Shown one piece after another: positions 32,920 through 63,959 of a stretch of 64,000 nucleotides of DNA. The stretch covers positions 64,001-128,000 of the IMG/VR virus record IMGVR_UViG_3300020576_003495. One strand, 5' to 3'. The notes beneath the pieces are model-generated. The model had not been told where the DNA came from. It searched no databases and was given only the letters and a program-made list of their open reading frames with translations. The first letter of the stretch is position 1; the number at the start of each line of letters is the position of its first letter. Origin of the DNA: a virus (taxonomy: Duplodnaviria > Caudoviricetes). Made by a program: the position numbers and the translations under genes.

Positions 32920-32960
32920 GGGCCGGTGGCGAAGTTGGTTGAAACGCATTAGGTGTGTTA
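32920..32960 (+). pseudogene. 5' half of a disrupted tRNA (Leu-like)
   Basis: GGGCCGG acceptor strand and D-arm; complementary to the 3' half at 33548-33593. Confidence 0.75.
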
Positions 32961-32964
32961 ATAT

Positions 32965-33040
32965 GCCCCAATACGCAATTTGGTAAAGCGGGGGGATTTA
33001 AAATCCCTTGATTCTGTCAGTTCGACTCTGACTTGGGGCA
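32965..33040 (+). tRNA. tRNA-Leu(TAA), short variable loop, no CCA
   Basis: GCCCCAA/TTGGGGC; loop TTTAAAA; GTTCGACT. Confidence 0.85.
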
Positions 33041-33046
33041 CTCATT

Positions 33047-33550
33047 ATGATTCTTGTGTCTGAATACATAAAGCTTCCAAAAGAAGCTAGGCAAGCACAC
33101 CTAGATTTAGCTTCCCCTTGTATTGAGAGGGGTGGTAGTTCAACGCAGCATAGGGCAATACTGGCTTACGTGCTAGATACCGATATAGCTACGGGCGTAT
33201 GCTGTTGTCACGCTTGTAGTAACGGTAAATGCAGTAACCCTAAGCACCTGTATTGGGGTACGTATAAAGAGAACAGTCTTGATGCGTTAGCTGACGGTAA
33301 CCCTACACCGTGGGATCGCATGGTAAAGAAGTACGGTAAGGAAGGTGCCTTGGAGAAGCTTAAGTTACTACGCTTTAATAGTATAACAGCTAGGAGAGCG
33401 GCTTCTAAGCTTACGGATGACCAAGTGAGACACTTACGTTCTTTGCCAGTAAAGTACGGTATGGCGTCAGAGTGGGGTAGAATTTTTGGTGTTGGTAGGC
33501 ACGTAATACATAATGTTCTTGCCAACAAGTCGTATCAGCACGTACAGTAA
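33047..33550 (+). CDS. HNH (His-Me finger) homing endonuclease
   Basis: CHACSNGKCSNPKHLYWGTYKEN; C-terminal HTH. Confidence 0.8.
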   Translation: MILVSEYIKLPKEARQAHLDLASPCIERGGSSTQHRAILAYVLDTDIATGVCCCHACSNGKCSNPKHLYWGTYKENSLDALADGNPTPWDRMVKKYGKEGALEKLKLLRFNSITARRAASKLTDDQVRHLRSLPVKYGMASEWGRIFGVGRHVIHNVLANKSYQHVQ

Positions 33551-33593
33551 CACACTAGAAACACCGAGGGTTCGACTCCCTCCCGGCCTACCA
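33548..33593 (+). pseudogene. 3' half of the disrupted tRNA
   Basis: T-arm GAGGGTTCGACTCCCTC plus CCGGCCT-A-CCA. Confidence 0.8.
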
Positions 33594-33597
33594 AACA

Positions 33598-33626
33598 GGG
33601 TGTATAGCTCAGGGGCAGTAGCAACT
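33598..33626 (+). pseudogene. 5' half of a disrupted tRNA (Ile2/Met-like)
   Basis: GGGTGTA-TA-GCTCAGGGGCAGTAGC then breaks off. Confidence 0.65.
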
Positions 33627-33667
33627 TAGTAGTTGACGGCAAAAAGTATAGTCCGTATAATTGCAAC

Positions 33668-34210
33668 ATGCCTACCCAAGCTGACTATCCGTACCAAGAG
33701 TATAGACTCTACGTTGTTCTCCACAAGAAAGAAAAACGTAGAATGGCGTGCTTAGTTAAACCCGGAAGCAGGGAAAGACTCACATTGTCTTATGCTAAGT
33801 ACCTAATGTCCGTCCACTTAGGTAGGGTTATGCTGCGTGATGAGACAGTTGACCACGTAAACGGGGATAAACTTGATGATAGACTAGAGAACTTTCAAAT
33901 ACTCAGTGCAAAGGCCAATAGAGAGAAGTACGTCGCTGATAACCCTGCTGAGTTGGTTCACCTAACCTGTAAAAAGTGTGGTCTAGCGTTTGTACGATCA
34001 AAAAGTCATGCGTACAAGCACACGCATTTGGGAAAACCTAGTTACTGTTCTCGTTCGTGTTCGGGCAATGTAAATATGGGTTCCTATAAAAGTCTGTCCG
34101 ACACGGTGGTAGCTGAAATAAAAAGACTACACGCCAGCGGTGTCGCCACTTCTGGCATAGCCTTGGCTTTGGGTGTCAGTGGTAACACCATTAGGAAGTA
34201 TCGTGTTTGA
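33668..34210 (+). CDS. HNH homing endonuclease
   Basis: VDHVNGDKLDDRLENFQ, CKKC...CSRSC, C-terminal HTH. Confidence 0.85.
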   Translation: MPTQADYPYQEYRLYVVLHKKEKRRMACLVKPGSRERLTLSYAKYLMSVHLGRVMLRDETVDHVNGDKLDDRLENFQILSAKANREKYVADNPAELVHLTCKKCGLAFVRSKSHAYKHTHLGKPSYCSRSCSGNVNMGSYKSLSDTVVAEIKRLHASGVATSGIALALGVSGNTIRKYRV

Positions 34211-34219
34211 GTTAAATTA

Positions 34220-34295
34220 GGACGTGTCGTATAAGGGTTGATTACGGGCTACTCATAATAGCCTTATTCTGGTTCGAGTCCAGACCCGTCCACCA
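34220..34295 (+). tRNA. tRNA-CAT (Ile2 or elongator Met)
   Basis: GGCTA-CTCATAA-TAGCC; CCA end. Confidence 0.85.
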
Positions 34296-34369
34296 TTAAT
34301 TGCAAGTAATTTCAACGCACACTATAGGAAGCGTCATTTCAGTCTATACTGCCCTTTTGTGGGGGACTT

Positions 34370-35149
34370 ATGTACGCATCCATATTGAAAGAAGAACTAC
34401 GCTGGCCTAAAGGCTCCCCGATGGGCGGCAAGTTTCGCGCAGGTAACTCCCCTGTACCAGAGTCAATAGACCACTGGACGAAAAAAGATGATTCACAGGG
34501 CGGATCAAACCCCGGATTCCAAGCCTATGATGAAACAGGGCAGAAGTACTACGTCAAGTTCCCCAAAACAGCAGACCACGTTTATAACGAAGTCCTAGCA
34601 TCACACCTATACAAAGCCGCAGGGGTTCGTGTTCCCGATGTGAAGCCTATCATGTACAACGGGCATATTGGCGTTGCCTCGAAATGGACTTCGGGGATGA
34701 AAAACATGCACCGTGAGATTCGACATGTTGAAGGGGCTAAAGAAGGTTTCGCTGTGGATGCGTGGTTGTCGAATTGGGATACCGCAGGGATGGGTCACGA
34801 TAACATGCTCATGCACCCTGACGGAAAAGCCTTCCGTGTCGATGTGGGGGGTTCCATGCAGTACCGTGCCCAAGGACAACCCAAAGGTGACGTGTTTGGT
34901 GATACGGTTCCTGAAATAGATCGGATGCGGGATCAAACAAAATCCTTCAACGCCGCTCAGGTTTTTGGGGGCATGTCTGAGCAGGAAGTGGCTAATTCTG
35001 TGAAGAAGGTTGCAGCGGTTTCGGATGAGGATATTGACAAATTAGTTGCTACGTATTATAATGCGTCAACTGAAAAAAGAAGTATCTTGGCTAACAAGCT
35101 AATTGCCCGTAAGAACTATCTCATTTCGAGATACGGAAGGGGGACATAA
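34370..35149 (+). CDS. HipA/PI3-4-kinase-like kinase with N-terminal targeting-like motif
   Basis: GGSN, YYVK, NEVLA, DAWLSNWD...N, VD.GG. Confidence 0.7.
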   Translation: MYASILKEELRWPKGSPMGGKFRAGNSPVPESIDHWTKKDDSQGGSNPGFQAYDETGQKYYVKFPKTADHVYNEVLASHLYKAAGVRVPDVKPIMYNGHIGVASKWTSGMKNMHREIRHVEGAKEGFAVDAWLSNWDTAGMGHDNMLMHPDGKAFRVDVGGSMQYRAQGQPKGDVFGDTVPEIDRMRDQTKSFNAAQVFGGMSEQEVANSVKKVAAVSDEDIDKLVATYYNASTEKRSILANKLIARKNYLISRYGRGT

Positions 35150-40600: not shown

Positions 40601-43449
40601 TGTGGGCAGACGCCTACGGAGGTAATCCGCCTAAGCCTGTAGACCAAAAAGCCGAAGATAAAAAGAAGTATATCAATTCCTACATTGCAAACATGGTTCC
40701 AGAACACAAACCTATAGAACAGACTATGAACGCCAAGTATGGCGTGGATACTGTTCAGGGTTGGGTTAAGGATTTTAATGCTGACAAGAAAATGCTACAG
40801 GGGAAAAATCTGGATTATTTAGATAACCCATCCCCCGAAGCTGTAGCTGCCATAAGCAGCACTACAAAAACGATTGATGCGGCCTACGGGGACGGCACGG
40901 CAAAATACATGCTGACGGGGCACAAGCCCGATGTTTTGGGTTCAAAACCAAAGCCTACTCAAGAAGATAAAGATTACCTTCTGGCCGCATCCGACACCCT
41001 CGCTGCCACAGGGGCGAAAGTAGCTGATGCTGTGGATTTTGCAAAAAAAGTTAAGATGTTCAACAGCATTTACGGGGAGGGTGCTGCTTCTGCCTACATC
41101 AAAGAAGCTAAAAACTTAAAAATCCCCAATGACATGGACGTAAGTGGTGTCAACGGAACCACCCCACTAGCATGGAAGGAAATAATTAAGGATAACTACG
41201 ACTCGTCTGTGTCGAGTTTGGTTTTTCATTCTAGCGATGTCGAAGATTACCCACAGCTTTCTAATGTGGATAAGAGCTACGGTACGGGGATGCATCAATA
41301 TTGGCTGACACAGCATATTGAAAGTTTGGATAAAGAAGCTAAAACGACGGCACCTACACCAACTACATCTAGCCCTACCCAAGCTCTGCTTGATGCAGGT
41401 AATAAGCTAGGCGCAAGTGGGGCTAAGATCAGAGATATGATTATTTTTGCCAGTAAGGTTACTGAGTACAATAACCTATATGGTGAAGGGTATGCATCAA
41501 AGCACCTAGCAGACACGGATAGTCTTGTTATTCCGTCAGACGACACAGTTGACCAGAACGGGAAGACTGCTGCGGAGTGCAAAAAGTCTTTGGGTGATTC
41601 TTACGACGCAGCAGTTAAAAATGCATACGCCACAAATCAGGCGATACCTGTGTACGCCAAGACAGCTAATGCTAGTTTTGGTTTAGCCACGTACAACTAC
41701 TGGTTGGCGCAGCATATTGAGCAGTTAGCTCAGGGAAAGAGTTCACCAGCACCAATAACTCCAGTAGACCCCAAAGCCGTAAAAGCAGCAACAGCCAAGA
41801 TGAAGAAGTCGGTACTTGCTGCGGCTAAGGCATTAATTGCAAACCCAACATCCCCACAGCATGCCGCAGCGTTTTCAAGCCTATTGTCCGATGCGGACGC
41901 AAAGTACGGCAGTGGCACGGCATTGAAGTGGATTGGTGCGGCAAACAAAAAAGAAGCCAAGGCTAATACGGGAACGGTTGCTGCATTGGAAATGCCAAAA
42001 GAATTGAACGATGTCATCGCAGTGGGGGATAGCGTTAACACGGCAAGCAAAACACAAGTACCCAAATTGCCTGACGTTCTCCCCACGGACAAGACCGAAG
42101 CCGAAGCCCTTAACGAGAAGTTGGGGTTGGCTTACTATACTATTCGTCATGAGAATGGTGGGGATAAAAATGCCCCTGATGTGCTCGCATCCTACAAAGT
42201 GTGGGATACGCTAAAAGACCACATGAAAGCCAATTTGGGCTATGACAAGAGTTTCTTTAGTAGCTCATCTAGCGACTTGAACAGTAAAGCCCAATCTCTA
42301 TGGGACAACAGTGGACAGGCCGCTGCCGATAAAAAAGCAAAAGCCACATCGGATTACGTGGATTCTGTTGCGGCATGGAGTGCTGAAGCGTCAAAGAAGA
42401 ATATTGACCCCGACAACGAAGACTACCTGAAAGATATGATGGTCACGAACGCCAAGCAAGCGGTTATTGCGGGTGTGCCTTCGAATACTATCGGTACGTT
42501 GTTTGAATCAGGTAAAGCTAATTCTGCGGCTTTCGTTAAAAAACAAAAAGACGATGCCATGAAAGAAATAGCGGCGGCAAGTCACGACTACTTCATGAAG
42601 AGCGGTTTAAAGGGTGAGGACGACCCAGAAACTAAAGCCGCTAACATGAACGCTTTGAACATCATGGCAAAGCATAGCATGCTGCTTTCAGAAGCCGAGA
42701 AGATTGACGCTTTCGGAAGGTCGAAGGGTGCTGCTGAAAAAACAGTGGCTAACATGAAGCTGCTGGGCGACTTGGGTGCCGCTGCACAGAAATATGATTC
42801 CGGTGAAATTAATTGCAAATGGGCACCTAAAGGAAGCGACGAGTTTAACCAAGCAAAAGCGGTTGGGGATGCTTTGTGGAAATCTCTTACACCATCGCAA
42901 CGTTCCGCTTTCACAAGCTATACTGGGTCTGGACACAAAGGCGTTAACAAGAATCTGGCACAAGGAACGACTACTGATCTAGCGGATGTTTTATCCAAAG
43001 CCATGGACGGTCAATCTTTGGGGGTTGATGTTAAGCTTGGGCGGAATATGCCGCAGAAGTGGTTTTGGAAGGCGATGGGGCTTCCTAACGACACCAGAGC
43101 AGAAATGAACAATTTGACAGACGAACAGCTTCAAGCTTGTGTGGGTAAGGTTTATCATGAGCCGGGGATAAGTTCAACGTCGTATGATCAGGACTGCGGC
43201 GTGTCCGTTACTAATACGGGGGACCAGTCAGGCTATCTTAAGCTTCACATCAGAGCCGCCAAGGATATTTCACAGGGGTTGTGGATAGATACTCACTCGA
43301 CTTGTTCCAGTGAGCGTGAGGTTATGCTGAACAAAGGGGCAACGTATTTGATTCGTGGAATACAGCGCAATGATACGTCTAGCTACGGCCCGTACTCATA
43401 CACCATTGACCTTGACTTAATCGGCTACACACAGGAACCAAAGAAATGA
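37687..43449 (+). CDS. 1920-aa protein with a C-terminal ADP-ribosyltransferase (VIP2/Alt-like) domain
   Basis: YTG...N..L, GRN, SSTS, EREV (R-S-ExE class). Confidence 0.8.
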   Translation: MYSSLLGGTAKTMSNKTPKTPFSALLSKEEKHFPAGYTDPEGHKGGQFAPKDTTGEVAQETKEKPFVYSDGQTSLVNSMAVNKPKEPTAPDVSPEDLIAHHKAGLEKSAKLLNQYIKQDGGKPTDTNAKILAGNIANHVDALSDLGGMSKEELAKGLSTQGLSMWLKKKHGLPLTAQEEKNIASTMKSAIALQNKKQAAKKLEDHKKNSALAEEAKVKFGEDSAQYKKLKNKAEKDLNKAMSYGVLPADAVKEKEVVKENHDAEKVAQLKAIHDAAEELAHQEHMGTQNTAYYNAVSDAVAAAKYADENETNKAIEAGKATNAAKIANGKTLLSISVIAHAQVQHQQHEAKDSDAYKEYKDAANAYKYYYNTGAIYNGLNKDDLKQAVKTGKLAFSSMKANKNMEKVAPPDVPGFEKLAPAPKPAVEVKPESPKTFSDISSEAKAKDGLQQLVDLTTSYNAHMTMPNNQTYYSDFLEAKKNFDTTMGVGYSDKALAAYYALKNNLVDSQAKDKEAEKEAQKKDFFGGLDYLKAYPNDKEASAKLADNHKEINDTYGAGTTLAWLKEYNAKNKQVEPKTFSDFVNDAKGKGNTGKLAYMTNAYSDHKAAPTPDTQAMLNGAKASLDASMGAGYSDKAIAAYDTATTAKPLATSPDGMMLAKDKSDYFKAIDSTPDSPKGEADPKLMQMKLDIDKKYGDGTANSWIAEKIKGMHADAAVKENVKASYLSILNYANPDASQQSAIAEMKKNIDAKYGDGTATTWMTENIKAVGQAATAKSYDYGKQEYNLTDTKADALAALRIPHTLDDKSDLIQNIIDKAKADIDLASGVKDAGLKYLNGKYTDHSNDNPNPEFSNFAKEVATKMLVDAQAKVDSLVDPILELSKKDAVKALTGLKQDVDKYLGQGASADLLDSYDEAKADHKKQFFAKMDAVQGGKANADNALALGMHINKVDELFGKGTSSLWADEFNSKKLWADAYGGNPPKPVDQKAEDKKKYINSYIANMVPEHKPIEQTMNAKYGVDTVQGWVKDFNADKKMLQGKNLDYLDNPSPEAVAAISSTTKTIDAAYGDGTAKYMLTGHKPDVLGSKPKPTQEDKDYLLAASDTLAATGAKVADAVDFAKKVKMFNSIYGEGAASAYIKEAKNLKIPNDMDVSGVNGTTPLAWKEIIKDNYDSSVSSLVFHSSDVEDYPQLSNVDKSYGTGMHQYWLTQHIESLDKEAKTTAPTPTTSSPTQALLDAGNKLGASGAKIRDMIIFASKVTEYNNLYGEGYASKHLADTDSLVIPSDDTVDQNGKTAAECKKSLGDSYDAAVKNAYATNQAIPVYAKTANASFGLATYNYWLAQHIEQLAQGKSSPAPITPVDPKAVKAATAKMKKSVLAAAKALIANPTSPQHAAAFSSLLSDADAKYGSGTALKWIGAANKKEAKANTGTVAALEMPKELNDVIAVGDSVNTASKTQVPKLPDVLPTDKTEAEALNEKLGLAYYTIRHENGGDKNAPDVLASYKVWDTLKDHMKANLGYDKSFFSSSSSDLNSKAQSLWDNSGQAAADKKAKATSDYVDSVAAWSAEASKKNIDPDNEDYLKDMMVTNAKQAVIAGVPSNTIGTLFESGKANSAAFVKKQKDDAMKEIAAASHDYFMKSGLKGEDDPETKAANMNALNIMAKHSMLLSEAEKIDAFGRSKGAAEKTVANMKLLGDLGAAAQKYDSGEINCKWAPKGSDEFNQAKAVGDALWKSLTPSQRSAFTSYTGSGHKGVNKNLAQGTTTDLADVLSKAMDGQSLGVDVKLGRNMPQKWFWKAMGLPNDTRAEMNNLTDEQLQACVGKVYHEPGISSTSYDQDCGVSVTNTGDQSGYLKLHIRAAKDISQGLWIDTHSTCSSEREVMLNKGATYLIRGIQRNDTSSYGPYSYTIDLDLIGYTQEPKK

Positions 43450-44699
43450 TTTTCTCTAAACTTTTCAAAAAAGAACCGATAAGTGAAAAGCAGCGTGTCA
43501 TGGGGCGTGTGGATGATGAGAGTTCATACGGGGAGTCCCTAGACAGCCAGTGCCAAACCTGCCGTTGGTATCATCCCGCACAGGCGACATGCGAAGCCTT
43601 TCCAGAGGGTGTCCCCACACTAATTTTGATGGGGGCTTACGACCACACCTACCCCTATGCCGATGAAGATTTAACGTATGAACCCAACCTTGCTACACGC
43701 ATAAACTCTGTAGTGAAGGGAAGCAAAGATCAACCTCGTATTCCTAAAGGAAACCCCGGTGGTGGGGAGTTTGCTTCCGAAGGATTTTCAGCGGCATCGT
43801 TTGCTAAAAAGAAGATTGATCCTTACGCCAAGATGTCTTCTATGGACAGGATGAAACGGGGCTATGCGTTAGCCAGTAAAATTCTTTCCAAGGAAGATTA
43901 CAACGATTTTGTAGCCAAGCAAAATGAGTTGCAGGACGATATTGCCAATGGAAAAATAACAGCCAAGTTTTACACCAAGGATGGTGATGAAAAAACCTAC
44001 ACATCCGAGCGGACTCAGGTTCATAACGATCTAATAAAAGAATACATGGGGGATATTTCCCGATTTTTACCCGAAAAAGGGAAAGAGCCTACCTTTACCA
44101 TCATCGGGGGTAGAGCAGGGTCAGGTAAGGGCGGGTTAGACGAGAAGGGTCTTAAAGAGTACGACAGGAACAAACAACTGGTGATTGACAGCGACATAGT
44201 GAAAAGTATGCTCCCTGATTACGATCCAGAAAAAGCCCACCTTTTTCACAAGGAAGCGCACTATCTTGTGACCCGTCTGTTACGGCAAGCCAGAAAACTG
44301 CATATCAATACGGTATATGACTCTACGATGAGCCAAGATGATTCCAGAGTTGTACAGACCTTCCATCGTCACCAATTTTCTACACGGGCTGTCTTTATGC
44401 ATGTGCCCCCATATGAATCTGCGGGACGCTCTTTGCTACGGTGGGCTAACGTAGGAAAAAAGAAGAAAGATGGCACACCAGACAGGGGGCGGCTGGTTAA
44501 TCCTCAGATTTGTTTGGGGATGACTAATAACGAGAGTAACTTTGACAAGACAAAAAAGCACGCAGACAGTTGGGCGTTCTACCGCAACGACGCCCCATCA
44601 AAGCTGGTTCCTGCCAGTCTGTACGCAACTGAAAAGGGTGTGGTGTCGGACGATCCCAAGGTGAAGAAGTATTCAAAACTATTGACAAACTATACCTAA
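43446..44699 (+). CDS. zeta-toxin-like P-loop kinase with an N-terminal Cys domain
   Basis: GGRAGSGKG, IDSD.VK, N.VYDST; N-terminal CQTC...CEAFP.G.P. Confidence 0.7.
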   Translation: MIFSKLFKKEPISEKQRVMGRVDDESSYGESLDSQCQTCRWYHPAQATCEAFPEGVPTLILMGAYDHTYPYADEDLTYEPNLATRINSVVKGSKDQPRIPKGNPGGGEFASEGFSAASFAKKKIDPYAKMSSMDRMKRGYALASKILSKEDYNDFVAKQNELQDDIANGKITAKFYTKDGDEKTYTSERTQVHNDLIKEYMGDISRFLPEKGKEPTFTIIGGRAGSGKGGLDEKGLKEYDRNKQLVIDSDIVKSMLPDYDPEKAHLFHKEAHYLVTRLLRQARKLHINTVYDSTMSQDDSRVVQTFHRHQFSTRAVFMHVPPYESAGRSLLRWANVGKKKKDGTPDRGRLVNPQICLGMTNNESNFDKTKKHADSWAFYRNDAPSKLVPASLYATEKGVVSDDPKVKKYSKLLTNYT

Positions 44700-45327: not shown

Positions 45328-45389
45328 GAGCTATGCTTAGCCGTTAGGAAGTTGTATCATGGGGGTAGTTACTCTAAAAGGCATCCCCC

Positions 45390-45461
45390 ATGTACGCACG
45401 CATATTGAAGCGCGAACTGAAGCTAGCCTTCAACCCATATCACGACGACCGACCATGCTAG
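45390..45461 (+). pseudogene. stranded original N-terminus of gene 46098..46946
   Basis: MYARILKRELKLAFNPYHDD vs MPLYSRILKRDLKLAFNVYHGDD. Confidence 0.8.
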
Positions 45462-46111
45462 TTTACCTCATTACTAGCAAAGATACGGGTAGGGTTTATG
45501 TCGGTCAAACAGTACGCCCTTTACACAAAAGAATGTATCGGCATTGGGAGCATGCTAGGCGTGGGCGTATGCACCCTTTATACGCAGCTATTAGAAAGTA
45601 TGGGGAGTCATCTTTTAGCGTGCGTGTTCTGGAAGTTGTTACAACACAGGAAGAGCTAGATTCAGCAGAACGTAAATGGGTGTTGTACTTTAATAGCGTA
45701 CACCCAGAGGGATACAACTTACGTGGTGGGGGAAGAGGGCGTGGAGAAATTAGTAAAGACACGCTACAACGCATGTCCGAATCGCATAAAGGTTTTGTCG
45801 TAAAAGAGGACACAAAAGAAAAAATACGTGCAGCCATGAAAGTCCGTTTCTTTTCTCCTGAGCATAGGGCGAGAATAAGTGCAGCTAAAAAAGGAAAAAA
45901 GGTGCCCTCGATGTTAGGTAAACTAAGCGGAGAAGCCAGTCACTTTTCTAAACATTCTTGGGAAGTCGTTAACGCTGTTAGGCTTGATTATGCTTCGGGC
46001 GGCTATCGCCAATTTGAGTTGTCTAAGAAGTACGGAATTAAAGCGGCAAGTCTATGCATGATTCTCAGTGGTAAGACTTGGAAAACGGAGAACTATCATG
46101 CCCCTATATAG
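45455..46111 (+). CDS. GIY-YIG homing endonuclease with NUMOD3-like repeats
   Basis: LVYLIT...VYVGQT, R...H, E, GYN; MSESHKG / ISAAKKG. Confidence 0.88.
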   Translation: MLVYLITSKDTGRVYVGQTVRPLHKRMYRHWEHARRGRMHPLYAAIRKYGESSFSVRVLEVVTTQEELDSAERKWVLYFNSVHPEGYNLRGGGRGRGEISKDTLQRMSESHKGFVVKEDTKEKIRAAMKVRFFSPEHRARISAAKKGKKVPSMLGKLSGEASHFSKHSWEVVNAVRLDYASGGYRQFELSKKYGIKAASLCMILSGKTWKTENYHAPI

Positions 46112-47131: not shown

Positions 47132-47378
47132 TGCACTACCAAGCCCCCACGAGGGGCTTTTTTAATGGTAGTTCGGCACAGCATGACTTATTCTGTTCCG
47201 TCCGGTGAACGTCGGTGTGAGCGGTGTCAGCAGTATCGACTGAGTTCAAAGGGTAAGTACGTCAATAAGACTTTGTTGAGGCGGCAGTGGCTCTGTGAGT
47301 TTTGTTTGGCGGCGGTTGACAAGCCTGTTCCTGCCCTATAAACTCAGCGGCATACTAAACCATAGTTTTGGGAACATC

Positions 47379-48179
47379 ATGCTTAAGGTACTTGAGTACA
47401 CCGACAAAAGTTACACGCCCTTTTCATTGTGTTTGAGCACACCCCACGAAGAACCTGACGATGCCTATAACATCTTGTCATTTGCATTTATCAAATGGGC
47501 GTGGTACATCAAAGTCCCGCAGTTCATCAAGCCCGTAGGTAAGAAGGTTAAAGTGACCACATGGGACGCGGCGACAATCGCTCGATTAGGGCGGGACTGG
47601 TACATGGACTACACACCAAAGAACTACGGTTTTACCTTCTTGGAAGACTCCATTCACATAGCCCACGGTATTCAACCGGGGTGCTTCATTTCCAACGACA
47701 AGAAAAACTCTGACCACGTAAAGATATGGGATTACCCGTGGAACTACACGCATGTCAGGAACACGATTTATACTCGAAACGGCGGTGAGTATAGTTATGG
47801 TGATTGGCACAAGCATGACAGGGTAAAGTACGATATTAAAGATCGTGACCTTGCTTGGCTTAGTGATCCCACAGGAGCGTATTACTATTTCATATATCGT
47901 GACACGTTTGATGGGATGGACATACCCACTAAAGCGCATGTTTCTGAGCGTGAGTGGCGCAGAGGAAAAAGTAAGTTTTGGCGTGTACTTCTTAGTATTT
48001 TTCCCAGCAGCAAAAAAGTTGTTTGTAGCCTAGAAATAGAATTCAAACATGAGGTTGGTGCACGAAAAGGATCATGGAAAGGCGGCACCATGGCTATGAA
48101 TATGGCGATGCTTGACGGTGAATCCGTGAATGATGCTATTTCTCGATTCAATACTACTTCCGCAGGGAATAAACGATAA
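47379..48179 (+). CDS. hypothetical protein
   Basis: EVG.RKGSWKGG motif. Confidence 0.6.
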   Translation: MLKVLEYTDKSYTPFSLCLSTPHEEPDDAYNILSFAFIKWAWYIKVPQFIKPVGKKVKVTTWDAATIARLGRDWYMDYTPKNYGFTFLEDSIHIAHGIQPGCFISNDKKNSDHVKIWDYPWNYTHVRNTIYTRNGGEYSYGDWHKHDRVKYDIKDRDLAWLSDPTGAYYYFIYRDTFDGMDIPTKAHVSEREWRRGKSKFWRVLLSIFPSSKKVVCSLEIEFKHEVGARKGSWKGGTMAMNMAMLDGESVNDAISRFNTTSAGNKR

Positions 48180-55692: not shown

Positions 55693-55772
55693 GGGGATGG
55701 GGACTGCTTGGTGTGGTCGCTTCACTGTCAATGAAGATATTCAGGCGAGTTCGAATCTCGTCATTCCCGCCA
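55693..55772 (+). tRNA. tRNA-Asp(GTC)
   Basis: CTTCA-CTGTCAA-TGAAG; CCA. Confidence 0.9.
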
Positions 55773-55781
55773 CAGGAAATT

Positions 55782-55868
55782 GGGTTAGAAGCCGTAATGG
55801 TATGGCCCCGGACTGTAAATCCGAGAGCGTGGCTGCACGAGTTGGTTCGATTCCAACCTAACCCACCA
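55782..55868 (+). tRNA. tRNA-Tyr(GTA)
   Basis: Loop CTGTAAA, long variable arm, CCA. Confidence 0.9.
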
Positions 55869-55903
55869 TTGACATTCTTTACAGAGTGCAGTATTCTGTA
55901 ATT

Positions 55904-56308
55904 ATGAAAATATGCACATCCTGCAAGCAAGAGCTTCCTTCGGAAGCGTTTTATAAGAACGCCGTTACGCTGGACGGTCTAGGTTCTCAGTGCAAGCGTT
56001 GCGACGGCGCGGGTAAGCAAGTTAAAGCTAGAGAAAATAAGCGCCGTCTTGTTGATGCTTTTGGCGGTTGTTGTAGCGTCTGCGGATACAGTAAATCCCT
56101 ACAAGTTCTACAGTTTCATCACCACGAGCCTAACAAAGAACGTGGTGTGTCTGATTTACTTAGGAATAAATACGAAGTAGCACTGGCCGAAGCTAAAAAG
56201 TGTATCTTGCTTTGCTCTAACTGTCATTTGGAATTACATGAAAAAGAGAGGCCACCATTAGTATATGGTGCTACTCGTAGGGGTAGGTCTAAAACAGTGG
56301 TATGCTAG
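55904..56308 (+). CDS. HNH homing endonuclease
   Basis: CTSC...CKRC, CSVCG, FHH, LLCSNCH..LH. Confidence 0.85.
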   Translation: MKICTSCKQELPSEAFYKNAVTLDGLGSQCKRCDGAGKQVKARENKRRLVDAFGGCCSVCGYSKSLQVLQFHHHEPNKERGVSDLLRNKYEVALAEAKKCILLCSNCHLELHEKERPPLVYGATRRGRSKTVVC

Positions 56309-56341
56309 ACATAGGGGGTTCGATTCCCTCACCCACCACCA
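56308..56341 (+). pseudogene. 3' half of a disrupted tRNA-Tyr
   Basis: T-arm plus ACCCACC-A-CCA (Tyr-type acceptor). Confidence 0.75.
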
Positions 56342-56345
56342 GAAT

Positions 56346-56890
56346 TCGCTTGGTTAGCGAAGTAGTCAGAGCACAACTGACGATAACTCAAACGTGGGAG
56401 ATGCCGTCACCTTAATAGGCAACCGTGGATGTCAGGGAGTCTGGCTCACTAAATCACTGGTAGAAGGATGTTGATTAGATACTCATCTGAATAAGGTCTT
56501 AGGGATTTGATCACCCTATCTCTACGGGTACCAGAGAGAGAAGCACTAACCATGCAGATCACCTTATTTTGTCCAACAGGGTCGCCCCCTGTAAGCAAAG
56601 CCTTGATTGATCATCAAGGTACTCCAAGGTCGTCCAATGGGAAGATACCCTGCATTTTGCGCGGGGAGATGCGGGTTTCGAAGTCCTGCCCTAAACGGAG
56701 TCAAGAACAGCGTAACGCTTACGGTGTAAATCCGAAGCTTCGTGGGCTAATCTACCCCCACTGAGGTTATCCCCACCAAGAAACAGAAGGGGCAGAATTT
56801 GTCGTTAATCAGAAAAGAATGCAGTTAGCCGAATAACCGGACTCTACTTGTAGAGCGACAGTGAAAGCCTGTACCGGGAGACACTAAGTA
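56346..56890 (+). ncRNA. large (~540 nt) structured ncRNA candidate with an embedded tRNA-like domain
   Basis: Terminal CTTGGT/ACTAAG pairing, many hairpins, cloverleaf at 56621-56701, no convincing ORF. Confidence 0.55.
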
Positions 56891-56896
56891 TTATAC

Positions 56897-56923
56897 GGGG
56901 GTATGGCTCAATTGGCACAGCAC
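56897..56923 (+). pseudogene. 5' half of a disrupted tRNA-Ala
   Basis: GGGGGTA-TG-GCTCAATTGGCACAGC. Confidence 0.65.
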
Positions 56924-56940: not shown

Positions 56941-57417
56941 ATGAGTTATATATTTGTACCCGCCCCTGAGAATTACCCCGGAACGATCTACCAGTACGGT
57001 AATAGAATTTTAGAACACCATTTAGTGTGGTGGTTGTCTACGGGGTTACTTGTTCCAGATGGTTACGTTTTGCACCATAAAGACGAAGACCCAACTAACA
57101 ATGAATTTAGTAACTTGGAGTTGATGCTTGAGGGTGACCATATCCGCCACCACAACACACAGCACACCATTGCTAGATTTGTATGCCGTAGGTGCGGAAA
57201 TACGTTTGACCGAAATACCAGAGTTATTTCTGATGGGTCAAAACATATCTATTGCTCAAAAAGGTGTTCAGCGCTCAGCACATCAGGAAGATGCCGCCTT
57301 AGCGAAGATATGAAGGAAAAAGTGCGGTTGCTTAGAATTTCTGGTGGGTCGACTAGAAGTATTTCCAGAGAGTTAGGTATTAGTCGCAACACTGTGATGA
57401 AGTATTGGGGGATATAG
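56941..57417 (+). CDS. HNH homing endonuclease
   Basis: EHHLVW, LHHKDEDPTNN..SNLE, CxxC, HTH. Confidence 0.85.
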   Translation: MSYIFVPAPENYPGTIYQYGNRILEHHLVWWLSTGLLVPDGYVLHHKDEDPTNNEFSNLELMLEGDHIRHHNTQHTIARFVCRRCGNTFDRNTRVISDGSKHIYCSKRCSALSTSGRCRLSEDMKEKVRLLRISGGSTRSISRELGISRNTVMKYWGI

Positions 57418-57478
57418 ATGGGCTAAACAACTGATTTGCAATCAGTTAGGGACGGATCGTTACCGTCATTCTCCACCA
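57407..57478 (+). tRNA. tRNA-Ala(TGC), divergent, overlapping the HNH stop codon
   Basis: G3:U70; ACTGA-TTTGCAA-TCAGT; reduced D-arm; T-loop ATCGTTA. Confidence 0.75.
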
Positions 57479-57578: not shown

Positions 57579-57662
57579 GCGAGTGTGGCGTAATTGGTAG
57601 CCGCAGCGGTTTTAGAAGCCGCCGTTAATTCGTGGTGGGTTCGACTCCCCCCACTCGCACCA
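57579..57662 (+). tRNA. tRNA-Leu(TAG)
   Basis: GCGGT-TTTAGAA-GCCGC; CCA. Confidence 0.9.
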
Positions 57663-57670
57663 AGTTTTAT

Positions 57671-57748
57671 CTACCTGTCGCCTAGTCTGGTATGGCCCCT
57701 GATTTGGGATCAGGCATAACCTCAGTTCAAATCTGAGCAGGTAGACCA
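57671..57748 (+). tRNA. tRNA-Pro(TGG)
   Basis: CCTGA-TTTGGGA-TCAGG; CCA. Confidence 0.9.
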
Positions 57749-57829: not shown

Positions 57830-57905
57830 GCCCCCTAAGCACATGTGGACGTGTGTCAGTCTCCAAAACTGAAGGTAGGCGGTTCGAGGCCGTCAGGGGG
57901 TGCCA
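57830..57905 (+). tRNA. tRNA-Trp(CCA)
   Basis: TCAGT-CTCCAAA-ACTGA; CCA. Confidence 0.88.
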
Positions 57906-57928
57906 ATGAAAGTAATTGCAAATACCCA

Positions 57929-57957
57929 TTGACAAATCGGGGGAGCTTTTATATAAT
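57929..57957 (+). promoter_or_regulatory. consensus sigma70 promoter for ncRNA copy 1
   Basis: TTGACA-N17-TATAAT. Confidence 0.85.
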
Positions 57958-57968: not shown

Positions 57969-58311
57969 TGTTAGATGCGTGTTTTTGGAGGTGGGCTTAG
58001 AAGCAGCCATCCTTAATGAGTAGGGCAAGTGCTGTATGCGGATACACATAGGCTGAGAAGGGCATCATTCAGGCCGAAAAGTTCAATAGGGTTTTGTGTG
58101 GATTCTTAGGGAGGCTGGCGTTAGGCCAGATAGCCGAAAGACGAAGCAAAATCACGCCAAGGCAGCTTCGCAAACTGCTGAAGGAATGGGAGTAGCACTC
58201 CCTGAGAACGAATGGGCGTACAGGGCCACACAGCTAGTATCAAGGGGAAGTTGCCGGTAATCCCCACGATCCCTTTTGGCGTGACAGCACACCAAGAATA
58301 CGCATCTAACA
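57969..58311 (+). ncRNA. 23S uL11-binding-domain-mimic ncRNA, copy 1
   Basis: 20-bp closing stem; GGCTTAGAAGCAGCCATCC (H43) and GCGTGACAGCACAC (H44). Confidence 0.8.
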
Positions 58312-58326: not shown

Positions 58327-58366
58327 TGGCGAGGAGGTTGTTGGTTACCAGACAGGCTCATAACCT
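58327..58366 (+). pseudogene. 5' half of a disrupted tRNA-Met(CAT)
   Basis: Acceptor strand, D-arm, CAGG-CTCATAA-CCT then breaks off. Confidence 0.75.
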
Positions 58367-58405
58367 TTTTCGCTAGTTGTGTTATGATACCCGTGGGGGT
58401 ATGCA

Positions 58406-58858
58406 ATGACACACTTACTATGTTGCAGTTGTAAAGAAAGCAAGCCTTTAGCTAGCTTTTCCAAAGACAAGAGTTCAAAGCGTGGGTACGCTAGTAAATG
58501 TAAAGACTGCCATAATACCTACGTGCGTACTGTGTGGTACCCAAAGAACAAGGATAAGCAGGTAGCGTCTGTTGCTCGTTTTAAAACAGCCAACAGACTG
58601 AAAGAAATCGCTTGGCGGCACGGTGTTCCGTTAGCGGATGTAGAAGAAGCAATAGAGCGCAGTTCTGGGGCTTGTGAAAGCTGCGGTTCCACTGTCTCTG
58701 TTGTGCTAGACCACTGCCACACCACGTCTAAAGTTAGAGGCGTCTTGTGCATGCGTTGTAATACAGTTTTAGGTAGGCTAGGGGATTCTTACGAGAGTGT
58801 TAAACAGCACATGGAGAGTTTGCTGGCCTATTTGGAAAAAAGTTTCGCGGGTGAGTGA
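58406..58858 (+). CDS. endonuclease VII-type homing endonuclease
   Basis: CESC...DHCHTTSKVRGVLCMRCN..LG. Confidence 0.85.
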   Translation: MTHLLCCSCKESKPLASFSKDKSSKRGYASKCKDCHNTYVRTVWYPKNKDKQVASVARFKTANRLKEIAWRHGVPLADVEEAIERSSGACESCGSTVSVVLDHCHTTSKVRGVLCMRCNTVLGRLGDSYESVKQHMESLLAYLEKSFAGE

Positions 58859-58923
58859 AACGTCTTACACAATGGGTTCATATCCCATTAACAGCAGGGT
58901 TAGACTCCCTGTACCCGCAACCA
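58846..58923 (+). tRNA. initiator tRNA-fMet(CAT), overlapping the endonuclease stop codon
   Basis: C1:A72 mismatch; GGG/CCC anticodon stem; CCA. Confidence 0.85.
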
Positions 58924-58925: not shown

Positions 58926-59052
58926 TTCTGTGGCGTAAATAACGATTTCCTCAATGCCAATGAAGTAACGTGGGTTCGAATCCCATCGGCTCGTAAGGGC
59001 TGTCGTCTAGTGGTTAGGACACTAAAAATTTCGTTGTTGCTTGTTCCCAGAA
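58926..59052 (+). ncRNA. YrlA-like Y RNA (permuted tRNA mimic)
   Basis: T-arm, loop-closed acceptor stem and D-arm inside a terminal bulged stem ending CTTGTTCC. Confidence 0.7.
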
Positions 59053-60983: not shown

Positions 60984-61054
60984 ACCCCGACTGTGGGACA
61001 GATTTTGGCCTTCTAAGCCAAAAATGGGAGGTTCGAAACCTTCTCGGGGTGCCA
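60984..61054 (+). tRNA. tRNA-Arg(TCT), reduced D-arm
   Basis: TTGGC-CTTCTAA-GCCAA; CCA. Confidence 0.78.
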
Positions 61055-61060: not shown

Positions 61061-61134
61061 GCGGATGTAGCTTAGTGATAAAGCGCTTGTTTGCCAAGCA
61101 AGATACGCGAGTTTGATTCTCGTCTTCCGCTCCA
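61061..61134 (+). tRNA. tRNA-Gly(GCC)
   Basis: Loop TTGCCAA; U73. Confidence 0.9.
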
Positions 61135-61140
61135 AGTTTC

Positions 61141-61215
61141 GCCCTTGTAGCACAGTGGCAGTGCACTCGCTTGGTAAGCGAGAGGTCGTGGGTTCGATTC
61201 CGACCAAGGGCACCA
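61141..61215 (+). tRNA. tRNA-Thr(GGT)
   Basis: CTCGC-TTGGTAA-GCGAG. Confidence 0.9.
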
Positions 61216-61221
61216 AGTTTC

Positions 61222-61296
61222 GCCCTTTTAGCGCAGTGATAGAGCAATCGTTTCGTAAGCGATAGGTCGTCTGTTTGATTCAGACAAGGGGCACCA
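61222..61296 (+). tRNA. tRNA-Thr(CGT)
   Basis: ATCGT-TTCGTAA-GCGAT. Confidence 0.88.
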
Positions 61297-61306: not shown

Positions 61307-61383
61307 GGGACGTTAGCTCAGTCGGTAGTAGCACTCGCCTCTTAAGCGATAGGTCGTCAGTTCGATCCTGACACGTCCTACCA
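61307..61383 (+). tRNA. tRNA-Lys(CTT)
   Basis: Loop CTCTTAA. Confidence 0.9.
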
Positions 61384-61745: not shown

Positions 61746-61751
61746 AGTTTC

Positions 61752-62087
61752 GGTGTTCGTAGAGGGTGGGCTTAGAAGCAGCCATCCCTTAAAGAGTAGG
61801 ACAAGTGCTGTATGCAGGTACACATAGGCAGTTTAAGGGCATAGTTAACTGGCCGAAAAGTTCAATAGGGTTTGTGTGGATTCTTAGAACGGCTTGGGGT
61901 CTGGACTCCAAGTACCAATCGAAAGACGAAGCAAATCACGCCAAGGCAGTCTCGCAAACTGCTGAAGGAATGGGGGTTGCACCCACTGAGAGCGAATGGC
62001 ATACAGAGCCACACGGCAAGTATCAATGGAAGGCAGAGATGCTAAATCCAACGATTCCTTTTAGCGTAGTAGCACACTACGAACACC
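61752..62087 (+). ncRNA. 23S uL11-binding-domain-mimic ncRNA, copy 2
   Basis: GGTGTTCGTAG/CTACGAACACC closing stem; H43 and H44 motifs; paralogous insert. Confidence 0.8.
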
Positions 62088-62221: not shown

Positions 62222-62239
62222 GTTGCAAGTAATTTCAAT

Positions 62240-62272
62240 GGTGATTGAAGAGCAAATTGGCCGCGCCAGCAG
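62240..62272 (+). pseudogene. 5' half of a disrupted tRNA-His
   Basis: D-arm AGAGCAAATTGGCCGCGCC resembles that of the downstream tRNA-His. Confidence 0.6.
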
Positions 62273-62285: not shown

Positions 62286-62374
62286 GGAGTCGTAAGAGCA
62301 AAGAGGACGCGCCACACGGCTGTGAACCGTGTCTCGAAAGAGGTTAGTGGGTTCAAGCCCCACACGACTCCCCA
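62286..62374 (+). tRNA. tRNA-His(GTG) with a long variable arm
   Basis: G-1:C73; CACGG-CTGTGAA-CCGTG; CTC-GAAA-GAG extra arm. Confidence 0.85.
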
Positions 62375-62573: not shown

Positions 62574-62608
62574 TTACTTAGTAAGAAATCTTTGTTGACC
62601 GATACCGT

Positions 62609-62646
62609 TCAAGGTGAGGCGGGTTTGACTCCCGTACCGGATACCA
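62609..62646 (+). pseudogene. orphan tRNA 3' half
   Basis: GCGGGTTTGACTCCCGT T-arm, acceptor strand, CCA. Confidence 0.65.
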
Positions 62647-62655
62647 AGTTTCAAT

Positions 62656-62687
62656 TCCGCAGAATCCAAGCAAGGTGCAAGGACTTG
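62656..62687 (+). pseudogene. 5' half of a disrupted tRNA (Asn-like)
   Basis: TCCGCAG acceptor strand (Asn-type TCC start) plus D-arm. Confidence 0.55.
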
Positions 62688-62714
62688 TCGGAAAGTGGGT
62701 GCAAAAAGATCAAT

Positions 62715-62803
62715 TCCCCGGTACTCTAATGGTAAGAGGCGATACTGTTAATATCGTGTAGTCGGCCTAGCGCCGTATAGAAGTTCGAGTCTTCTCTGGG
62801 GAG
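62715..62803 (+). tRNA. tRNA-Asn(GTT) with a long variable arm, no CCA
   Basis: CGATA-CTGTTAA-TATCG; G73. Confidence 0.85.
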
Positions 62804-62808
62804 CACGT

Positions 62809-63216
62809 ATGAAGAATGGTGAGTATACTTTAGTCATAGCGCCTGAAGGGTATCCGGGCAAGAGGTACCGTGGTCGCTACTGCTATGAACATCATTTGGT
62901 TTGGTGGTTGAATACAGGTGAAGTCGTACTTGCTGGCGAGTTGATTCACCACAAAGATGAGGACAAGCGCAATAACGTTTTCCTTAACCTTGAGAAAATG
63001 TCAAAGACTTCTCATGATGCACACCACAGTAACCTACCGATTAAGTCGCCTGTTCTGGTGTCTCTTTTTTGTTTTTGGTGCGGTTCTGCTTTCACCTTGA
63101 GGAAGCATGTTTACGTGTGCAGGGTTAGAGCTAACGGGCATGCTGATGTGTGTTGTGGAAGGTCGTGCCAAGTCAAGAAGCAGCAGCATGACAAAAAAGT
63201 TAAAAAGGAAAATTAA
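62809..63216 (+). CDS. HNH homing endonuclease (paralogue of 56941..57417)
   Basis: AP..YPG..Y...EHHLVWW...HHKDEDKRNN..NLE. Confidence 0.85.
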   Translation: MKNGEYTLVIAPEGYPGKRYRGRYCYEHHLVWWLNTGEVVLAGELIHHKDEDKRNNVFLNLEKMSKTSHDAHHSNLPIKSPVLVSLFCFWCGSAFTLRKHVYVCRVRANGHADVCCGRSCQVKKQQHDKKVKKEN

Positions 63217-63290
63217 GCTATCAGGGTATAGCCTCTGCCTCGAAAACAGAAGGTTCCGAAAGGGATGAGTTTCGATTACTCAATTTTCCA
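63207..63290 (+). tRNA. tRNA-Ser(CGA), divergent, no CCA
   Basis: GGAAAAT/ATTTTCC; loop CTCGAAA; long variable arm. Confidence 0.7.
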
Positions 63291-63341
63291 CACTAAAACT
63301 GTTCGACTTCTGCTAAAATATTATTTTTGTGGAGTCGAACC

Positions 63342-63866
63342 ATGCGGATAAGTAAAAAACAAATAGCTAGGTTTTGGTCTAACGTGCAGAAAACAGATAG
63401 CTGTTGGCTTTGGTTGCGGCAACCAAATAATAAAGGCTACGGTAAGGTAACTATAAGGCCGAATAGTCAAGAGCGTGTAATGCTATTGGCACACAGGCTA
63501 GCTTGGCTTCTAGTTAAAGGTGAAATACCAGATGGGTTATTTGTCCTACACAAGTGCGATACTCCCTTGTGTTGCAATCCCGAACACTTATTCCTTGGAA
63601 CTCAACAAGATAACATGGGTGATATGTGGGCTAAGGGGCGCAGTCGACTGCATGAGTTCAGGCACTTGGGGACGATTGCTGCACATACTGAAGTGGCTAC
63701 GCAAAAGCGGAAAGATACGTTTATTGCCATTGAACACCAGAAGGGTAAGCGCAACTCGCAGTTTGGGTCTTTTTGGATTACCGATGGTAAAGTTAATAAG
63801 AAGTGGCGTTCTGAGTTGGGCTGTATCCCCTCTGGTTTTTTTAAAGGACGTAGTAAATTTTTTTAA
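63342..63866 (+). CDS. HNH homing endonuclease
   Basis: FW..V.K..SCW.W, AHR.AW, VLHKCD...CCNPEHL..GT..DN. Confidence 0.9.
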   Translation: MRISKKQIARFWSNVQKTDSCWLWLRQPNNKGYGKVTIRPNSQERVMLLAHRLAWLLVKGEIPDGLFVLHKCDTPLCCNPEHLFLGTQQDNMGDMWAKGRSRLHEFRHLGTIAAHTEVATQKRKDTFIAIEHQKGKRNSQFGSFWITDGKVNKKWRSELGCIPSGFFKGRSKFF

Positions 63867-63871
63867 GTTTT

Positions 63872-63959
63872 GGAAACGTGGCAGAGTGGTCAATTGCACC
63901 GGCTTTGAATACCGGCAGTCCGAAAGGGCACGTGCGTTCGAATCGCACCGTTTCCGCCA
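63872..63959 (+). tRNA. tRNA-Ser(TGA)
   Basis: Loop TTTGAAT, long variable arm, CCA. Confidence 0.9.

Follow-up and report, generated by a model that had tools for sequence, protein, structure and literature searches.

INTRODUCTION

To persist, homing endonucleases are thought either to shelter within essential genes in self-splicing introns or inteins, or to keep to the spaces between genes. The free-standing nuclease SegB of phages T4 and T6 resides in a tRNA cluster, recognizes and cuts a motif in the T-loop of tRNA genes, and co-converts flanking DNA when it homes (PMC2330249). In T6, tRNA-Tyr and segB can be amplified as a single unit, and a statistical link between SegB and tRNAs has been reported (PMC13096335). 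In the mitochondrial mORFs of Allomyces (atp6) and Glomus (atp6, atp9, cox2, nad3), a foreign replacement C terminus is carried while the native end of the gene is stranded; in these gene hybrids the native remnant is more like the gene of a relative than the inserted copy is (PMC3630166). The present report concerns nuclease genes in the tRNA clusters of a Caudoviricetes virus, analyzed in a 64,000-nucleotide (nt) stretch of DNA (hereafter the window: bases 64001–128000 of the linear, 178,170-bp IMG/VR record IMGVR_UViG_3300020576_003495, estimated to be 91% complete). An earlier inspection of its letters (the sequence-only reading) had proposed that several of these nucleases sit in disrupted tRNA genes, each with an intact but diverged tRNA of the same identity.

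We estimate the probability at roughly two in three that the nucleases are free-standing homing endonuclease genes of three families, residing in tRNA clusters and accompanied by a spare tRNA with the same anticodon where they have inserted into the body of a tRNA gene. The evidence comprises the anatomy of the cassettes, the families of the nucleases, their presence or absence among relatives, empty sites that hold intact tRNAs, and recurrence of the design elsewhere. Overall, the split-tRNA cassettes look like a natural "cut the target, bring a spare" invasion of essential RNA genes that proceeds without an intron.

RESULTS

Nuclease genes in the tRNA clusters

The window holds 26 tRNAs, and the whole genome 31 plus a permuted transfer-messenger RNA (tmRNA) candidate (ARAGORN). 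The genes form a small group at 32.9–34.3 kb and a large cluster from 55.7 to ~73.8 kb (window coordinates, used below unless the genome or a contig is named). At least four complete tRNAs were overlooked by ARAGORN: Arg-TCT (60984–61054), a His-like gene (62288–62374), and Arg-ACG and Arg-CCG beyond the window.

All seven open reading frames (ORFs) that the sequence-only reading had named as nucleases match nuclease families in Pfam (HNH_3, zf-His_Me_endon or Endonuclease_7) and in PHROG (HNH or EndoVII). An eighth nuclease lies outside the window at genome 131235–131777. Orphan tRNA halves adjoin five of the seven, namely those at the Leu, CAT, Tyr, Ala and Met sites; for the Asn and Ser(CGA) nucleases, the proposed placement in a disrupted tRNA gene did not hold. 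By blastp, the eight nucleases and an HNH found only in the relative L005 (see below) sort into three families. Family A (HNH_3 with a C-terminal HTH, often ending ...NTVMKYW) contains the genes at 33668, 56941, 62809 and genome 131235–131777; family B (His-Me/HNH_3) those at 33047 and 63327 and the L005-only gene; and family C (zinc ribbon plus an EndoVII/HNH domain) those at 55886 and 58406. None of the seven window nucleases has a GIY-YIG domain and no integrase was found among the cassette ORFs (Pfam, PHROG). Each ORF is a gene of its own, placed between RNA genes or within one, and no intron or intein surrounds it. That no self-splicing intron core is visible had been observed earlier, and a search for intron families, including group I and group II, indeed returned none in 32000–64000 at E ≤ 1.

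Close relatives were found neither among GenBank phages nor in IMG/VR by DNA searches and searches with three proteins, and exact IMG/VR searches with the old Leu 5′ half and the remnant at 56314 gave no match. They are present in public metagenome assemblies. The contigs used for comparison are L001, which covers the Leu/CAT locus (locus 1), and L005 (20 kb) and L007, which cover the main cluster, along with X4, X7 and X9. Other relatives are known as gene maps, from ENA assembly samples ERZ22665968 (a 60-kb contig) and ERZ1426815. Over shared DNA, L005 and L007 are ~99% identical to the window, and the protein of a flanking gene in L001 is 94% identical to its window counterpart. Five nucleases (33047, 33668, 55886, 58406 and 62809) are absent from L001 or L005/L007, with flanks that are 94–99% identical. 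The arrangement of locus 1 is 100% identical in four other samples, and that of the main cluster at least 99.3% identical in three.

Cassettes at the Leu and CAT sites

The small tRNA group holds the following features.

32920–32948, + strand: 5′ remnant of an old tRNA, with acceptor GGGCCGG and a Leu-type D-arm (read from the sequence; 20/29 identical to the L001 Leu 5′ end)
32965–33042, + strand: cassette tRNA-Leu(TAA), ending A73-C74 without CCA (ARAGORN; Rfam tRNA model, 53.2 bits)
33047–33550, + strand: His-Me/HNH homing-type nuclease, family B (Pfam zf-His_Me_endon, weak; PHROG HNH families; absent from L001)
33566–33593, + strand: 3′ remnant of the old tRNA, with T-arm, CCGGCCT and ACCA (motif scan; 22/28 identical to the L001 Leu 3′ end)
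33598–33621, + strand: 5′ remnant of an old tRNA-CAT, 21–24 nt (22/26 aligned to the 5′ end of the intact L001 tRNA-Met(CAT))
33633–33661, + strand: promoter-like site TTGACG-17-TATAAT before nuclease 33668 (11/12, consensus match only)
33668–34210, + strand: HNH_3 nuclease with C-terminal HTH, family A (Pfam, PHROG, blastp; absent from L001)
34220–34295, + strand: cassette tRNA-CAT with CCA (ARAGORN; unreported by the Rfam tRNA model at E ≤ 1)

The order proposed for the Leu site (5′ half, tRNA-Leu(TAA), nuclease, 3′ half) is the order found, and the acceptor strands of the halves pair at all seven positions across the insert. The CAT site likewise reads 5′ fragment, nuclease, tRNA-CAT, as had been described. 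No nuclease is present at the same place in L001, where intact genes for tRNA-Leu(TAA) (59.7 bits) and tRNA-Met(CAT) (65.8 bits), separated by a 265-bp spacer, are accompanied by a third tRNA. Homology extends 20 nt into the L001 tRNA-Leu at the 32920 remnant. Against this tRNA-Leu, the remnants have 42 identities in 57 aligned positions, and the cassette tRNA has 29 in 59 over the compared ends. With the 5′ end of the L001 tRNA-Met, the corresponding values are 22 of 26 for the CAT remnant and 16 of 28 for the cassette tRNA-CAT. As judged from these alignments, both remnants are nearer to the resident alleles of relatives than the cassette tRNAs are.

The joined Leu halves yield no canonical anticodon arm, and therefore the old Leu gene is not fully reconstructable; ARAGORN folded the rebuilt gene only by using a D-arm strand as anticodon stem. 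The third L001 tRNA (L001:9871–9947, 35.4 bits), which follows tRNA-Met, is lacking from the window with exact boundaries, and here too a whole gene was gained or lost. Several tRNAs are followed by the motif TGCAAGTAATTTCA or its complement (34297–34320, 57905–57925 and 62222–62240), and homology with L001 resumes at this motif.

Tyr, Ala and Met sites

Three further sites with orphan halves lie in the main cluster.

55693–55868, + strand: tRNA-Asp(GTC) and tRNA-Tyr(GTA) (Tyr at 55782–55868), foreign alleles (56% and 66% identical to L005 Asp and Tyr; flanks 99%)
55886–56308, + strand: HNH nuclease, family C (PHROG 2255, E 2e-31; absent in L005, L007 and X9)
56314–56341, + strand: orphan 3′ half with T-arm, ACCCACC and ACCA, where the L005 tRNA-Tyr ends (motif scan, L005 comparison)
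56897–56923, + strand: tRNA-type 5′ remnant with GGGGGTA and D-arm, presumed old Ala (read from the sequence)
56941–57417, + strand: HNH_3 nuclease with HTH, family A (Pfam HNH_3, E 4.5e-9; PHROG, blastp)
57407–57478, + strand: tRNA-Ala(TGC) with G3:U70, reduced D-arm and T-loop ATCGTTA, overlapping the nuclease stop (ARAGORN; Rfam 24.8 bits, under gathering score)
58328–58368, + strand: 5′ two-thirds of an old tRNA with a CTCATAA anticodon loop (read from the sequence; intact L005 tRNA-Met(CAT) at the same place)
58406–58858, + strand: Endonuclease VII-type nuclease, family C (Pfam Endonuclease_7, E 4e-15; absent in L005 and L007)
58847–58919, + strand: initiator-like tRNA-CAT with a C1xA72 mismatch and GGG:CCC anticodon stem, overlapping the nuclease stop (ARAGORN; Rfam 34.7 bits; 62% identical to L005 Met)

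At the Tyr site, the new tRNA-Tyr, the nuclease (preceded by a promoter-like site at 55869–55897 in a promoter scan) and the orphan 3′ half are all present as proposed, with a tRNA-Asp brought in as well. The Tyr-type label of the remnant is based on position only. Extension of the remnant to a Tyr anticodon arm under the C terminus of the nuclease was not significant. L005 has 243 nt here instead, which hold a tRNA-Asp(GTC) (45.7 bits) and an unusual tRNA-Tyr(GTA) with no HNH, and homology between window and L005 resumes exactly at the last bases of the remnant (CCACCA/GAATTC). The comparison indicates that the foreign tRNA-Asp and tRNA-Tyr came jointly with HNH 55886.

The Ala site has the proposed layout, in which a 5′ remnant is followed by the HNH gene and by a tRNA-Ala that overlaps its stop. 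The remnant shows T8, A14, G18G19, A21 and a 3-bp D stem. This cassette is present in all relatives with readable DNA; in the gene map of the 60-kb ERZ22665968 contig, no nuclease lies between the genes for the 245- and 166-amino-acid proteins. The T-loops ATCGTTA (window tRNA-Ala) and ATCGTAA (L005 tRNA-Tyr, L005:9326–9408) differ from the usual TTCGA type, and in both T54:A58 appears to be swapped to A54:T58. The swap may be a structure-preserving change at the motif recognized by SegB-like enzymes. Between the Tyr and Ala remnants, ~555 bp (56342–56896) contain no convincing ORF and no Rfam match; L005 retains this stretch apart from a 125-bp block, in place of which it has 121 different bases.

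At the Met site, the 5′ piece with the CTCATAA loop, the EndoVII gene and the initiator-like tRNA-CAT lie in the order described earlier. L005, and likewise L007, have a single intact tRNA-Met(CAT) without EndoVII. Homology with L005 is lost after the first 7 nt of the gene and regained within the new tRNA, in its 3′ acceptor. Neither the remnants nor the new tRNAs at the Met and Tyr sites resemble the L005 alleles (~62–66%); therefore, at least three allele lineages have passed through both sites, and neither remnant is nearer to the L005 allele in the way that the Leu and CAT remnants are to those of L001. The expectation that relatives lacking a nuclease would carry one intact tRNA matching the remnants was thus borne out in part. 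Single intact tRNAs occupy the Leu, CAT and Met sites (Asp plus Tyr at the Tyr site), while a match to the remnants is seen for CAT and, loosely, for Leu.

Nearby, 57969–58311 and 61752–62087 are two related noncoding elements, each after a strong promoter-like site (12/12 at 57929–57957); the second copy is skipped in the X4 and X7 contigs.

Distribution of stranded tRNA halves

The whole genome was scanned for orphan 3′ halves, defined by a perfect T-stem of 5 bp with a TTCRA-type loop, followed by an acceptor strand and NCCA. Outside called tRNAs, such motifs occur only within tRNA regions. True orphan 3′ halves lie in the window at 33566, 56314, 62619 and 58970 (the last lacks NCCA), and beyond it at genome 131872. 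Normal tRNA 5′ signatures are seen in the 5′ pieces at 32920, 33598, 56897 and 58328. Sequence comparison indicates that the remnants are not repeats of the new tRNAs. With a covariance model, isolated 3′ halves gave weak T-arm matches in some cases, and 5′ halves and controls gave none; the model provides no significance for such halves because they are too short. A blastn-short comparison of the masked cluster with the tRNA set was too insensitive.

A Thr cassette outside the window also keeps both old halves (GCCGGTT and AACCGGC), whose acceptor strands form seven of seven pairs across the insert. The Leu and Thr inserts are therefore each bracketed by both halves of one old tRNA, and their contents are exactly a nuclease and a complete tRNA. 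Two sites have stranded halves with no adjoining nuclease.

58953–59025, + strand: Glu-like orphan 3′ half followed by a 5′ half, also in L005 (motif scan, L005 comparison)
62619–62646, + strand: orphan 3′ half with T-arm, ACCGGAT and ACCA (motif scan)

The 3′-then-5′ pair (58953–59044; L005:11555–11662) has a weak match to YrlA (Y RNA-like) of 27.5 and 20.2 bits, far under the gathering score, and could be a permuted tRNA-like RNA rather than debris.

Recurrence in other phages

A search with nuclease 33668 covered 1.8 billion representative proteins, and its three nearest full-length homologues, all from other phages, were examined. For P0133 (53% identical), which neighbors a DNA ligase gene, a tRNA-Ile(TAT) follows 37 nt downstream; for P0134 (42%), a tRNA-Met(CAT) follows 8 nt downstream. 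P0141 (41%) belongs to a different, unrelated phage and has RtcB and thymidylate synthase as neighbors. Its locus reads 5′ half (GGGCGTG...), tRNA-Met(CAT), HNH, 3′ half (...TGCGCCC-ACCA), with seven of seven acceptor pairs. The neighbors of these three genes indicate that the 33668 lineage is kept with tRNAs reading AUG or AUA, and the split-tRNA layout at P0141 indicates that the design is not restricted to the window phage.

Clean insertions after C74

The Asn and Ser(CGA) nucleases, together with the L005-only gene, present a different picture.

62715–62804, + strand: resident tRNA-Asn(GTT), cut off after C74 by an insertion (93% identical to L005 Asn, which ends GCCA)
62809–63216, + strand: HNH_3 nuclease, family A, a clean 402-bp insertion replacing CAGTTTT (joint 62804 to 63207 in X7 and X9 contigs; gene absent in L005)
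63207–63291, + strand: tRNA-Ser(CGA), ending A73-C74 (ARAGORN; 100% identical in L005)
63327–63866, + strand: HNH_3/His-Me nuclease, family B, with no tRNA remnant alongside (Pfam HNH_3, E 1.6e-15; 46% identical to the L005-only HNH)

A 5′ half at 62656 had been proposed for Asn. This sequence scores under shuffled sequence against either Asn allele, and the nuclease is a clean insertion after C74. At the corresponding joint, X7 and X9 read ...GAGC followed by CAGTTTT, which is a normal GCCA end plus the usual spacer. The tentative inclusion of Ser(CGA) and HNH 63327 among the disrupted genes also fails, as no remnant lies alongside. In L005, tRNA-Gly(GCC) is split cleanly between C74 and C75 by a 575-bp insertion, the L005-only HNH, and the window shows the empty site; DNA beside this HNH is 88% identical downstream versus 96% upstream. 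The tRNA alleles beside nucleases are foreign at Asp/Tyr and Met, whereas Gly, Thr and Ser(CGA) are unchanged.

The sequence-only reading took missing CCA ends and unusual loops as marks of cleavage-resistant alleles. Both cassette tRNA-Leu and tRNA-Ser(CGA) end at N73-C74, right before a family B nuclease, and CCA is missing because the nuclease was inserted after C74, not because the allele is a resistant one. Low or missed Rfam tRNA-model scores are not confined to replacements, but extend to Cys, Ser(GGA) and Phe. No CCA-adding enzyme (PF01743) was found encoded in the phage genome, and thus the host enzyme would be needed to restore CCA. The spacer CCA-AGTTT(T/C) recurs between tRNAs and before stranded 5′ halves (e.g., 61134–61141, 61215–61222 and 57662–57671). 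It may be a processing signal, and it is also a candidate target for C74-inserting nucleases.

tRNA replacement without nucleases

The tRNAs of the window and L005 differ greatly in how far they have diverged. Ala, Trp, Cys, Phe, Gln, four Ser, Leu-GAG and Thr-CGT are identical, and Thr-GGT (0.99), Gly-GCC (0.97) and Leu-CAA (0.96) nearly so. Asp, Tyr, Leu-TAG, Met, Ile-GAT, Lys-CTT and Lys-TTT are ~62–66% identical with the same anticodon, and Glu, Pro and Asn are of intermediate identity. The tRNA-Lys(CTT) genes (61307–61383 and L005:14228–14303; 62% identical) show a swap that exactly spans the gene body; Ile-GAT, Lys-TTT and Leu-TAG are swaps of the same kind with no nuclease nearby. It follows that nucleases are not required in cis for tRNA divergence and are not the sole route of replacement. 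Nucleases are one agent within a more general modular turnover of tRNA genes. Clean swaps by flank homology differ from nuclease-linked events, which leave scars.

Two genes have been exchanged in part. The tRNA-Pro(TGG) at 57671–57748 and the L005 tRNA-Pro(CGG) at 10805–10882 share acceptor, D-arm and T-arm, with the whole anticodon arm exchanged. The tRNA-Glu is chimeric relative to L005, with the 5′ half alike and the 3′ half different.

Other features of the genome

Upstream of the main cluster are genes for a zeta-toxin-like kinase (43446–44699) and a GIY-YIG/NUMOD3 nuclease (45359–46111), and an Acb3-like gene lies at ~47295–48179. The permuted tmRNA call (tag ANDSQYRVAA) is at genome 134848–135178, outside the window but within the tRNA cluster, and a tRNA-like gene without assigned identity is at genome 134308–134380.

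DISCUSSION

From these layouts we infer a cleavage specificity, a repair route and a function for the spare tRNA as follows. The nucleases would spread between co-infecting relatives by cutting a tRNA gene or tRNA 3′ end in genomes that lack the nuclease, with repair copying the nuclease-bearing genome. Two outcomes are observed. One is a clean insertion directly after C74, losing only the encoded CCA, which the host CCA-adding enzyme would restore. The other is insertion into the tRNA body along with a linked foreign tRNA of the same anticodon. Insertion at C74, or similarity between donor and recipient tRNAs, would allow clean repair. In the second outcome, the linked xenologue is only ~50–65% identical to the resident, such that recombination could not resolve inside the gene. 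Homology would then resolve one side at most, and non-homologous end joining at the break on the other would strand the 5′ and/or 3′ piece of the old tRNA; ectopic insertion would strand both. The carried tRNA would keep the isoacceptor available, such that the insertion is tolerated without a self-splicing intron, and neither the interrupted target nor the diverged spare would be open to further cutting.

A broader proposition is that the cassettes form a widespread, so far undescribed class of self-complementing cut-and-rescue elements. Such elements would permit ribozyme-free invasion of essential tRNA genes, with whole nuclease lineages tied to one isoacceptor, as the 33668 lineage is to CAT/TAT tRNAs, and would be a main driver of the xenologous same-anticodon turnover observed between near-identical phages. 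We advance this version tentatively and regard it as somewhat more doubtful than probable.

Several observations weigh against homing genes that carry a spare tRNA. For the Leu nuclease, the nearest homologues (59% identity over the N-terminal domain) come from the tRNA region of another phage, where tRNA-Val is 250 nt away and tRNA-Leu is not a neighbor. The Lys-CTT swap has identical flanks and a nuclease in neither genome. Orphan halves also occur away from nucleases (58953–59025 and 62619), and of the four nucleases that are polymorphic between window and L005, two have essentially unchanged tRNAs beside them. The nuclease-adjacent CAT 34220, Ala and Ser-CGA genes score poorly as tRNAs and may not work. 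The joined Leu halves lack a canonical anticodon arm, and, except for CAT and loosely Leu, the intact tRNAs of relatives mismatch the remnants, the direct ancestors being unsampled.

Some of these facts would suit a general modular turnover, in which tRNA units are swapped between diverged clusters of co-infecting phages, perhaps under host tRNA-cleaving defenses, with nucleases merely occupying the junctions and remnants arising as by-products. Phage tRNAs are known to counter tRNA-targeting defenses (PMC11555353, PMC13096335). In its favor, the window/L005 tRNAs are bimodal (identical, or ~62–66% with an unchanged anticodon), the boundaries of the Lys(CTT) swap coincide with those of the gene body, Pro and Glu are intragenic chimeras, nucleases can insert alone at C74, and orphan halves exist without a nuclease. 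We nevertheless judge this explanation unlikely. The Leu and Thr inserts hold exactly a nuclease and a tRNA between the two halves of a single tRNA, five of the seven window nucleases adjoin a remnant, and the 33668 lineage stays beside CAT/TAT tRNAs across 41–53% protein identity and in differing genomic contexts. The same bracketed inserts and the 33668 homologues favor the earlier suggestion that nuclease and replacement tRNA form a mobile unit that drives tRNA divergence, whereas the nuclease-free swaps count against it.

Perfect pairing of the Leu and Thr acceptor strands across the insert could also mean that the tRNA is interrupted but functional, the halves being exons or split-tRNA pieces that are rejoined after an intron-like nuclease insert is removed. 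This is very improbable: no group I or group II family is detected at E ≤ 1 in the region searched, the joined Leu halves have no canonical anticodon arm, a single half is retained in most cases, and relatives have uninterrupted genes. To our knowledge, moreover, bacteria lack the archaeal splicing endonuclease route for split tRNAs. Because the record is metagenome-derived and its tRNA motifs are repeated, strain variants might have been mis-joined at those motifs. This possibility is more remote still, since identical arrangements occur in contigs up to 127 kb from several samples and studies, and the alternative genotypes were themselves assembled in long contigs (L005, 20 kb). As the same arrangement was recovered from several samples, the cassette arrangement is not an assembly artifact.

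For RNA genes, a third solution to the problem of persisting in an essential gene appears, namely to break the target and carry a diverged copy that is predicted to work. If homing with a carried spare is the correct account, it would explain the stray tRNA halves and the CCA-less or odd tRNAs of phage tRNA clusters, as well as 99%-identical phages that carry unrelated same-anticodon tRNAs. It would also offer natural cases of cut-and-rescue drive logic, along with nucleases that are specific for tRNA genes. The annotation of phage genomes is affected too, as tRNA counts, "pseudo-tRNAs" and absent CCA ends can reflect scarring by nuclease traffic.

Among known systems, T4/T6 SegB and the nucleases F-TflI/II/IV of the T5 tRNA region share with the present ones a nuclease gene in a phage tRNA cluster with its own promoter (here, promoter-like sites) and no intron. 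As with SegB, the nuclease is present or absent among close relatives. SegB is a GIY-YIG enzyme, whereas the nucleases here are HNH, His-Me or EndoVII types, and several of those in the window lie inside a broken tRNA gene beside a foreign same-anticodon tRNA and stranded old halves. No description of such halves beside a same-anticodon spare was found for SegB in PMC2330249 or PMC13096335.

Group I intron homing endonucleases in tRNA genes also interrupt the gene while tRNA function is kept, although no ribozyme is present here and function is predicted to be kept by a second gene copy rather than by splicing. A further parallel is offered by integrative elements whose targets are tRNA genes, the 3′ end being restored from attP; there, too, mobile DNA enters a tRNA gene with a replacement for the displaced part. 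Unlike these elements, the cassettes have no integrase, carry a whole diverged tRNA instead of an identical 3′ segment, and do not reuse the old pieces.

The closest design is that of the fungal mitochondrial mORF gene hybrids, in which an endonuclease ORF lies in an essential gene with a foreign replacement, the native part being stranded alongside. A native remnant is kept in this way beside an endonuclease ORF and a foreign replacement at Leu, CAT, Tyr, Met and, outside the window, Thr. The mORFs replace an in-frame C-terminal part of a protein gene, whereas the cassettes carry a whole tRNA gene on either side of the nuclease; phages are the hosts here, and the nucleases belong to other families. 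A tRNA version of this design did not turn up in literature searches. On sequence grounds, the closest known kind of element would be the free-standing homing endonuclease, and what appears to be new is the whole same-anticodon tRNA carried beside the stranded halves of the old gene.

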